Shown piece after piece: positions 62,168 to 64,000 of a stretch of 64,000 nt of DNA. The stretch is from NCBI RefSeq assembly GCF_030013205.1, contig NZ_CP122648.1. One strand, written 5' to 3'. The position numbers and the translations under genes were made by a program. Origin of the DNA: Escherichia coli. Its GTDB lineage: Bacteria; Pseudomonadota; Gammaproteobacteria; Enterobacterales; Enterobacteriaceae. Position 1 is the first letter of the stretch. Each line of letters opens with the position of its first letter. The notes under the pieces are model-generated. The model had not been told where the DNA came from. It was given only the letters and a program-made list of their open reading frames with translations, and did not search any database.

Positions 62168-62980
62168 ATGGCAACAACACAACAATCTGGATTTGCACCT
62201 GTTGCATCGCCTCTCGCTTCGACCATCGTTCAGACCCCGGACGACGCGATTGCGGCGGGCTTCACCTCTATCCCCTCACAAGGGGATAACATGCCTGCTT
62301 ACCATGCCAGACCAAAGCAGAGCGATGGCCCACTGCCAGTGGTCATTGTAGTGCAGGAAATTTTTGGCGTGCATGAACATATCCGCGACATTTGTCGCCG
62401 TCTGGCGCTGGAGGGGTATCTGGCTATCGCACCTGAACTTTACTTCCGCGAAGGCGATCCGAATGATTTTGCCGATATCCCCACGTTGCTTAGCGGTCTG
62501 GTAGCAAAAGTGCCTGACTCGCAGGTGCTGGCCGATCTCGATCATGTCGCCAGTTGGGCTTCCCGCAACGGCGGCGATGTTCATCGTTTAATGATCACCG
62601 GATTCTGCTGGGGTGGACGTATCACCTGGCTGTATGCTGCGCATAACCCGCAACTGAAAGCGGCGGTGGCATGGTACGGCAAACTGACGGGCGATAAGTC
62701 GCTGAATTCACCGAAACAACCTGTTGATATCGCAACCGATCTTAACGCGCCGGTTCTCGGCTTATATGGCGGTCAGGATAACAGCATTCCGCAGGAGAGC
62801 GTTGAAACCATGCGCCAGGCGCTGCGGGCTGCTAATGCGAAAGCAGAGATTATCGTCTACCCGGATGCCGGGCATGCATTCAACGCCGATTATCGCCCGA
62901 GCTATCATGCCGAATCTGCGAAAGATGGCTGGCAGCGAATGCTGGAGTGGTTTAAGCAGTATGGAGGGAAGCGGAGTTAG
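62168..62980 (+). CDS. ysgA: Dienelactone hydrolase-family protein (carboxymethylenebutenolidase homologue)
   Basis: ORF 62102..62980 trimmed to MATTQQSGFAPVASPLAS (RBS ggag upstream); alpha/beta hydrolase with nucleophile elbow GFCWGG; 271 aa. Confidence 0.9.
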   Translation: MATTQQSGFAPVASPLASTIVQTPDDAIAAGFTSIPSQGDNMPAYHARPKQSDGPLPVVIVVQEIFGVHEHIRDICRRLALEGYLAIAPELYFREGDPNDFADIPTLLSGLVAKVPDSQVLADLDHVASWASRNGGDVHRLMITGFCWGGRITWLYAAHNPQLKAAVAWYGKLTGDKSLNSPKQPVDIATDLNAPVLGLYGGQDNSIPQESVETMRQALRAANAKAEIIVYPDAGHAFNADYRPSYHAESAKDGWQRMLEWFKQYGGKRS

Positions 62981-63371
62981 TTTCCTCTTAGTCTATATTT
63001 GAGATGGTGAGTGAACGAGTGCGTTTTGCTGCCATCTCTGTCCCCCAAAAAATAATCAGTATGAATTGATTGGAGAGCACGACTCCGCTATTTGACCTTA
63101 AGAAAGTCGGCAAGTAATAGTCATAAGTGAGTCTCTTCACTGGCAGACACCTTAGAGATTTACCATCAACTCCCATTCTCAAACAAACATTAATTATTAT
63201 CAACACATTCACATTAATTATAAATTATCTCAGACCTTCCTGATAAAAAGATATTAAAGTGAAACATTTTGTTTTTCACATTTTAGTTCATCCCTTTTAG
63301 GCGTAAATAAAGGTAAAAAATAACAATACTATTTTTCTTTCACAAAAGAATTAACAAAAGGTTTTTCAAGG

Positions 63372-64000
63372 ATGAGTGATATTATTTACCTGAACATAAC
63401 CGGAGAACAACAAGGATGTATTTCCTCTCGTTGTGGAACGAGCGCATCAATAGGTAATCGCTGGCAGATTGGCCATGAAGATGAAATCTTCGCGTTCTCG
63501 CTCTCTAATAGTATTACGAATACAGGCAAAGGGTCACAATTGCATGGCCTTAGTTTCTGTAAATTGATTGACAAAAGCTCCCCGTTACTTATTAACGCTA
63601 TTAACAATAACGAGCAGTTGTTCATGGAGTTTGACTTCTATCGGATCAATAGATTTGGTCGATGGGAGAAATATTACAACATTCAACTTCGCGGCGCGCT
63701 CTTATCAGCAATCAATCACCTGTTTACTGAGAACAATCTGGATACAGAAACCATCACTGTCAGTTATGAATATATACTCTCCAGGCATCTGATTGCTAAT
63801 ACTGAATTTAGTTATTTGGCATTTCCCGATAACTACAACCGTCTGTTTATACCACGGCCAAAAACTAAAGATGATAATGGCCTCAAAACACTCAATAGTA
63901 AAGCGGTTGGCAGACTGCTTGCTGCTGGCGGCATATACAATGGGAATATCGAAGGATTCAGGGAAACAGCAAACAAGTTGGGAGGAGATGCACCTGCTGG
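63372..64000 (+). CDS. Hcp-like (type VI secretion tube protein family) ORF with C-terminal extension; 3' end beyond the window
   Basis: ATG at 63372, open to the window end (at least 209 codons, checked codon by codon). N-terminus MSDIIYLNITGEQQGCISSRCGTSASIGNRWQIGHEDE... and internal LSFCKLIDKSSPLLINAINNNEQLFMEFDFYRINRFGRWEKYY match Hcp hallmarks (GHEDE, KxIDKSSPxL, FxFYRIN). An Hcp domain is normally complete by about 150-160 aa; this ORF continues (…IPRPKTKDDNGLKTLNSKAVGRLLAAGGIYNGNIEGFRETANKLGGDAPA…). Low-GC relative to flanking core genes. Not in the ORF track because no stop lies in the window. Confidence 0.7.
   Translation, partial: MSDIIYLNITGEQQGCISSRCGTSASIGNRWQIGHEDEIFAFSLSNSITNTGKGSQLHGLSFCKLIDKSSPLLINAINNNEQLFMEFDFYRINRFGRWEKYYNIQLRGALLSAINHLFTENNLDTETITVSYEYILSRHLIANTEFSYLAFPDNYNRLFIPRPKTKDDNGLKTLNSKAVGRLLAAGGIYNGNIEGFRETANKLGGDAPA

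Follow-up and report, generated by a model that had tools for sequence, protein, structure and literature searches.

A probably fortuitous inverted repeat overlaps a conserved, promoter-like block upstream of an orphan hcp-ET gene in Escherichia coli

Sigma-70 core promoters combine a −35 element (TTGACA), a 17-nt spacer and a −10 element (TATAAT), and CRP sites follow the form TGTGA-N6-TCACA (consensus AAATGTGATCTAGATCACATTT). Among the regulators whose described sites come closest to the sequence examined here, the LacI-family protein Cra (FruR) has operators of the type RSTGAAWCSNTHHW (PMC5829826) or gcTGAAtCGaTTCAgc, and the central CG is the most informative part of its in vivo motif (PMC5888115). 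The OmpR boxes of ompC and ompF consist of tandem 10-bp half-sites, such as those of the ompC C1 site TTTACATTTTGAAACATCTA (PMC2586830), and a T6SS of Yersinia pseudotuberculosis is under positive control by OmpR (PMC3686713). Repression by H-NS has been reported for the T6SS cluster of EHEC (PMC13141884). T6SS effectors of the ‘Hcp-ET’ type have been reviewed (PMC6730261). How orphan Hcp-toxin cassettes are activated is poorly understood in E. coli, whose T6SS genes are largely silent in vitro. A palindrome upstream of such a cassette, if it were a conserved operator, would have offered a handle on how these cassettes are switched on.

The window analysed here, a 64,000-nucleotide stretch of E. 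coli DNA, ends with the rmuC-udp-ysgA chromosomal region, an A+T-rich stretch and the 5′ part of an hcp-ET gene. The left neighbour, ysgA (dienelactone hydrolase family), was annotated at 62168–62980 on the + strand, and hcp-ET (tssD) occupies 63372–64000 on the same strand, where it is cut by the window end. Positions 62950–64000 were 100% identical to strain CFSAN018748, in which the RefSeq annotation of the identical locus (L001, 9423–10556) gives a tssD gene of 377 aa in full, with two small ORFs between it and metE. Residues 6–135 of the product were covered by Pfam T6SS_HCP (E = 3e-14), and NCBIfam TIGR03344 also matched; on these domain matches, the product is an Hcp with a C-terminal extension, encoded by an orphan hcp-ET toxin gene. 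The islet between ysgA and metE measures 2.27 kb. K-12 has 39 nt there, which form a terminator hairpin, and the islet was absent from both K-12 and EDL933.

The ysgA-flanked and hxlB-flanked E. coli contexts were homologous from near 63184 onwards, and therefore about 188 nt of upstream DNA (63184–63371, + strand, 76% A+T) travel with the gene. This upstream region was also alignable in Citrobacter, in Salmonella and at a second E. coli locus. It was carried by 848 of 5,426 complete E. coli genomes, 387 of them at ≥ 95% identity and 461 at about 72%, and outside this locus the 5,426 genomes yielded no paralogous copies. The module started at the same point in the four genomes of the 72% class that were inspected (Nissle, 3-72, A3 and clone D i2), and the left flank was hxlB, not ysgA, in the three of them whose flank was fetched.

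The left neighbours of the hcp-ET module thus differed, with ysgA in the window (62981–63183 being the intervening DNA) versus an hxlB-ptsG-tkt sugar-utilisation island in the Nissle-type genomes (L002, 8714–9000). Related modules adjoined a GFO/IDH/MocA oxidoreductase gene in other E. coli and Salmonella loci, one of which (L018) had ggt on the far side. Decay of the cassette was frequent among E. coli carriers. At the same locus in other E. coli (L002, L004, L005 and L008), the Nissle 1917 cassette contained an internal stop; an O145 strain carried an IS3 insertion, UTAK-1 a frameshift together with an internal stop, and CFSAN061768 an IS1 element in place of the gene, with only remnants of the immunity genes left.

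Within the travelling DNA, the sequence reads GTGAAA (63259–63264), CATTTTGTT (63265–63273) and TTTCAC (63274–63279), which together form the perfect dyad GTGAAA-N9-TTTCAC (63259–63279). This matches the 6-bp inverted repeat with a 9-nt spacer described in the original prediction. The dyad is centred at −103 relative to the hcp-ET ATG (63372), from which it is separated by 92 nt, and its placement about 100 bp upstream of an Hcp-like gene was likewise correct. The chance expectation was evaluated for any perfect 6-bp inverted repeat with a spacer of 0–15 nt in the 392-nt ysgA/hcp intergenic region, using 2000 dinucleotide-preserving shuffles. An exact-pattern test, which gave 0 expected occurrences, was set aside as post hoc, since the word had been chosen after being seen. 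At least one such repeat occurred in 88%–89% of the shuffles, and the observed number was four against an expected 3.0. When at least two G/C per arm were required, 58% of the shuffles still held one or more repeats. Across the 64-kb window, 412 repeats of this kind were counted (6.4 per kb). The GC content was 33% in the intergenic region and 24% in the 194 nt travelling with the gene. The caveat attached to the original prediction, that a short palindrome can arise by chance in DNA this AT-rich, was therefore borne out by the shuffles; the sequence and position of the repeat were confirmed, but an excess over chance was not. The dyad is present in the sequence, yet by itself it is no evidence of anything.

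To compare the arms among related loci, the window was aligned with the Nissle-type lineage and five Citrobacter species from a scan of representative genomes, together with the Salmonella locus and two loci at another chromosomal site adjoining the GFO/IDH/MocA oxidoreductase gene. All six complementary pairs were present only in the near-identical E. coli lineage of the window; the nine other loci retained two to four of the six. At a column conservation of 0.67, the right arm (63274–63279, + strand) was level with the regional mean (0.69) and was outscored by 96 of the 184 hexamer windows. Its column read TCCCAT in the Nissle-type E. coli lineage, TCTGCT, TTTCCT, TCTTCT or ATTTCG in Citrobacter, and TATTAT or TTTTAT in Salmonella and the paralogous E. 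coli loci. The right arm was missing from the 72%-identity class, that is, from 461 of the 848 module-carrying E. coli genomes. The left arm (63259–63264, + strand) had a conservation of 0.93 against the same mean, a value exceeded by just 4 of the 184 hexamer windows. Across orthologues it read GTGAAA, TTGAAA (C. sedlakii and Salmonella P13), ATGAAA or GTGTAA; its TG was the same in all 10 alignable loci, and none of the next three A's was kept in fewer than nine. The original prediction had suggested a regulator binding site and had tied this to conservation of the dyad in homologous loci. The palindromic-operator reading is unsupported, because the dyad symmetry was absent from the orthologous loci. 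Judged from this alignment, the perfect dyad is very probably a lineage-specific coincidence with no functional palindrome.

A genuine palindromic operator, recently evolved within the ysgA-flanked E. coli lineage and recognised there by a dimeric regulator, is a highly improbable reading of the dyad. Both arms were intact in all five sampled members of this lineage, one of which had a substitution in the spacer, and the right arm with its flank reads TCACATTT, a perfect right half-site by the CRP consensus. However, over the full 1,051-bp query the five sequences shared 95%–100% identity with the window and are too similar for this conservation to be meaningful, the dyad lies within chance expectation, and the symmetry was absent from every lineage divergent enough to inform. 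The half-sites are also 7 bp too far apart for CRP. The locus resembles a CRP site in having the words GTGA and TCACA flanked by A-/T-runs, but the distance from the G of GTGA (63259) to the T of TCACA (63276) is 17 nt rather than the 10 nt of the consensus, and the right half was unconserved, with no TCACA half in the orthologues. A CRP site was rejected on these grounds.

No part of the upstream region is better conserved than the stretch containing the left arm and the spacer, and the dyad therefore overlaps a real, non-palindromic cis-element. In this respect the suggestion of a regulator site was partly right, as to the presence of an element but not as to its palindromic nature. Among the 22-column windows of the 188-nt upstream region, 63255–63276 on the + strand (TAAAGTGAAACATTTTGTTTTT; consensus TAAAGTGAAACATTTTATTTnT) was the best conserved, with a mean of 0.88 (column-permutation P = 1e-4). 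Identity to the window was 77%–95% inside this block versus 42%–68% outside it. The dyad spacer (63265–63273, + strand) is a conserved T-rich stretch with the consensus CATTTTATT and a column conservation of 0.88. The core of the block, AAAKTGAAACRTTTT, occurred once per locus and only upstream of hcp-ET. The block was kept wherever this hcp-ET subfamily occurred, namely in E. coli (at two chromosomal sites), five Citrobacter species and Salmonella. The upstream regions of four more distant hcp-ET loci (57%–68% protein identity) were not alignable; therefore, by the alignments, the block is confined to one subfamily, with Hcp domains about 73% or more identical to that of the window. Two further conserved blocks were found in alignments A2 and A3, at 63231–63243 (CAGACCTTCCTGA; consensus CAGAttTTCCTCA, CAGAnnTTCCTCA) and at 63299–63308 (AGGCGTAAAT), both on the + strand. 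The latter lay at a fixed distance from the TATAC block described below, and both could be promoter or regulator elements.

The 22-nt block may be the −35/core promoter region of hcp-ET, a tentative assignment that we place somewhat short of even odds. The block would then form the core of a promoter carried with the gene, comprising an A-tract, a −35-like hexamer (G/T)TGAAA supplied by the left arm, and the T-rich spacer. A weak −10 element would follow 16–17 nt downstream, as TTTAGT in the window (63282–63287, + strand, 17 nt after GTGAAA) and as TATAC(G/A) in most orthologues. The predicted transcription start would lie near 63294, and the leader would span about 78 nt. The right arm TTTCAC would fall in the 3′ part of the promoter spacer, where the sequence is free to vary, and this position could explain its variability; in the E. 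coli lineage of the window it merely happens to complement the putative −35 hexamer. A weak promoter in foreign DNA of 76% A+T might be kept low, for example by H-NS.

Several features of the alignment were consistent with this promoter. In a simple sigma-70 weight matrix built from published position frequencies, GTGAAA-17-TTTAGT scored 5.3 bits and ranked fifth among 875 candidates on the + strand. The candidate anchored on the left arm ranked 1–14 among about 900 + strand candidates in nine of the 10 alignable loci (3.8–7.5 bits), and no indel separated the left arm from the TATAC block in nine of 10. At the candidate −10 site, TATATAC(G/A) was conserved in seven of nine orthologues, which gives the arrangement (G/T)TGAAA-16-TATAC(G/A); the window has CATTTTAG there (63279–63286) and Nissle has TATTTAAA. 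In a distant orthologue whose upstream region was otherwise unalignable, the aligned position was its best + strand promoter match (CTGAAA-16-TAAAAT, 10.2 bits). Compared with TTGACA, (G/T)TGAAA agrees at four to five of six positions (four for GTGAAA, and five for TTGAAA in two loci). The −10 candidates TTTAGT (spacer 17), TTAAAT (Nissle) and TATAC(G/A) (spacer 16) each agree at four of six with one key position missing, namely the A at position 2 in the window and the T at position 6 in the orthologues. The consensus promoter scan did not list the site at the left arm. Promoter-like matches were plentiful in such A+T-rich DNA, with six sites against 1.7 expected in that scan. The block resembles a sigma-70 core promoter in its −35-like hexamer, its 16–17-nt spacing fixed across orthologues, its location about 110 nt upstream of the start codon and its 76% A+T, but differs in its poor −10 candidate and unusually conserved spacer. 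A plain promoter would not be expected to conserve its spacer to this degree (0.88), which suggests that something else binds at this position. Promoters of the sigma-54, sigma-28 and sigma-E types were rejected in a by-eye check against their consensus sequences, which found neither GG-N10-GC nor GCCGATAA, nor a correctly spaced TCAAA. A literature search for start-site data for Nissle and CFT073 gave nothing usable, and EDL933, the EHEC strain with published Cappable-seq tables, is one of the strains lacking the islet.

Another + strand candidate, TTATCA-18-TAAATT (8.3 bits), lies upstream of the dyad and shares alignment columns with TTGAAT-18-TACATT of C. youngae (11.1 bits). Transcription from such an upstream promoter would place the dyad in the hcp-ET leader, where a hairpin could affect translation or stability. 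This would require a stable and conserved stem, but the dyad offers six A/T-rich pairs around a 9-nt loop, with a folding energy of −3.4 kcal/mol (DNA energy parameters; z = −1.4), its pairing partner was not conserved, and the consensus fold of nine orthologues reached −1.1 kcal/mol with almost no covariation. A regulatory leader hairpin is thus very unlikely. An Rfam search gave no match, and no terminator-like sites were scored in 62900–63500; an intrinsic terminator or structured RNA element was rejected, as there was no stable, conserved stem-loop. Elsewhere in the intergenic DNA, in its lineage-specific part just past the ysgA stop, a 7-bp inverted repeat GAGATGG … CCATCTC with a 24-nt loop was noted at 63001–63038; it was not scored as a terminator.

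The block could also be read on the opposite strand, as the −10 region of a divergent minus-strand promoter, with the left arm at or just after the leftward start. On the minus strand of the block, TAAAAT, which agrees with the −10 consensus at five of six positions, was found in most orthologues, namely Nissle, Citrobacter NCU1, Salmonella P13, Ec_P16 and P18, with scores of 7.6–11.4 bits. The window, however, has the hexamer CAAAAT and no −35 element at 15–19 nt, and the −35 positions were not conserved in sequence. Moreover, the roughly 75 nt of the module remaining leftward contained no conserved ORF, RNA family or structure, and the same surplus of promoter-like sites in A+T-rich DNA (six against 1.7) applies to these matches. 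A divergent promoter is accordingly improbable.

Conservation beyond background across the block, including the spacer, would also be expected of a transcription-factor operator, either instead of or besides a −35 element, with only the left arm in the site. Response regulators of the OmpR type and LacI-family proteins such as Cra, which binds chiefly to a single half-site, were considered. The decamer GAAACATTTT resembles the half-site GAAACATCTA of the ompC C1 OmpR site (PMC2586830), and OmpR is attractive as a candidate given its role as a T6SS activator in Y. pseudotuberculosis (PMC3686713). However, the second 10-bp half-site was not conserved (GTTTTTCACA, ATTTCCCATA and ATTTATTATA), the second decamer of the window, GTTTTTCACA, does not fit the (G/T)xxACA core, and the ACA cores of the window are 14 nt apart rather than 10; the shared 7-mer is weak evidence. 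The likeness to the OmpR boxes of ompC and ompF is therefore limited to one decamer, with no conserved second half-site in the 10-bp register, and an OmpR site was rejected because only this one half-site-like decamer fits. For Cra, AGTGAAACATTTTG matched the consensus RSTGAAWCSNTHHW (PMC5829826) at 12 of 14 positions, and the C. youngae version at 14 of 14. The left half of the Cra/FruR operator, TGAAAC, is present and conserved, but every E. coli locus has CA where the in vivo motif (PMC5888115) has its central CG, and the right half TTCA is lacking, with TTTT(G/A) in its place in the E. coli loci. Sites with at most two mismatches numbered 186 in the window versus 150 ± 12 expected, and a Cra site was rejected since matches of such quality occur at about the chance rate. 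Taken together, an operator of this kind appears unlikely. We regard it as similarly doubtful that the block is the operator of a regulator functionally travelling with the hcp-ET subfamily, for which the palindrome would still be irrelevant.

The remainder of the cassette lies beyond the window end. The C-terminal end of Hcp-ET (about aa 250–377) gave no Pfam, NCBIfam or PDB sequence match. In Lonsdalea, a region 71% identical to aa 140–377 was fused to a non-Hcp N-terminus (L031, 4958–6004), and the linker (aa 165–245) was shared with Citrobacter FP75, where it precedes a different toxin end. By this domain shuffling, the C-terminal end looks like an uncharacterised polymorphic-toxin domain. 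The toxin gene is followed by two tandem paralogous small ORFs of 85 and 81 aa (L001, 10553–10810 and 10885–11130). NCBI gives the name ‘MarR family transcriptional regulator’ to their family, which is widespread among the Enterobacterales and lacks a Pfam domain. In Lonsdalea, a homologue follows the protein with the same toxin end, with an overlapping start; in Citrobacter cassettes with another toxin end, a homologue comes last, after other small ORFs; and in Cronobacter, homologues occur alone, as a pair. The small protein tracks the toxin across different N-termini and is therefore best read as an immunity protein. Judging from these contexts, the two small ORFs are best read as a cognate and an orphan immunity gene, and the NCBI name is probably misleading for this family. 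A cassette-encoded regulator binding the block was, by inference, rejected on the same grounds, as the small protein tracks the toxin in Lonsdalea.

Overall, we assign a probability of about 0.6 to the best explanation of the locus, a chance dyad lying over a promoter-like conserved block. If the block were instead bound by a regulator travelling with the subfamily, this regulator would link expression of the orphan toxin cassettes of E. coli, Citrobacter and Salmonella with either the main T6SS cluster or an envelope or metabolic signal. A search for the promoter and any regulator of hcp-ET should mutate the 22-nt block, or employ it as bait, rather than the palindrome.
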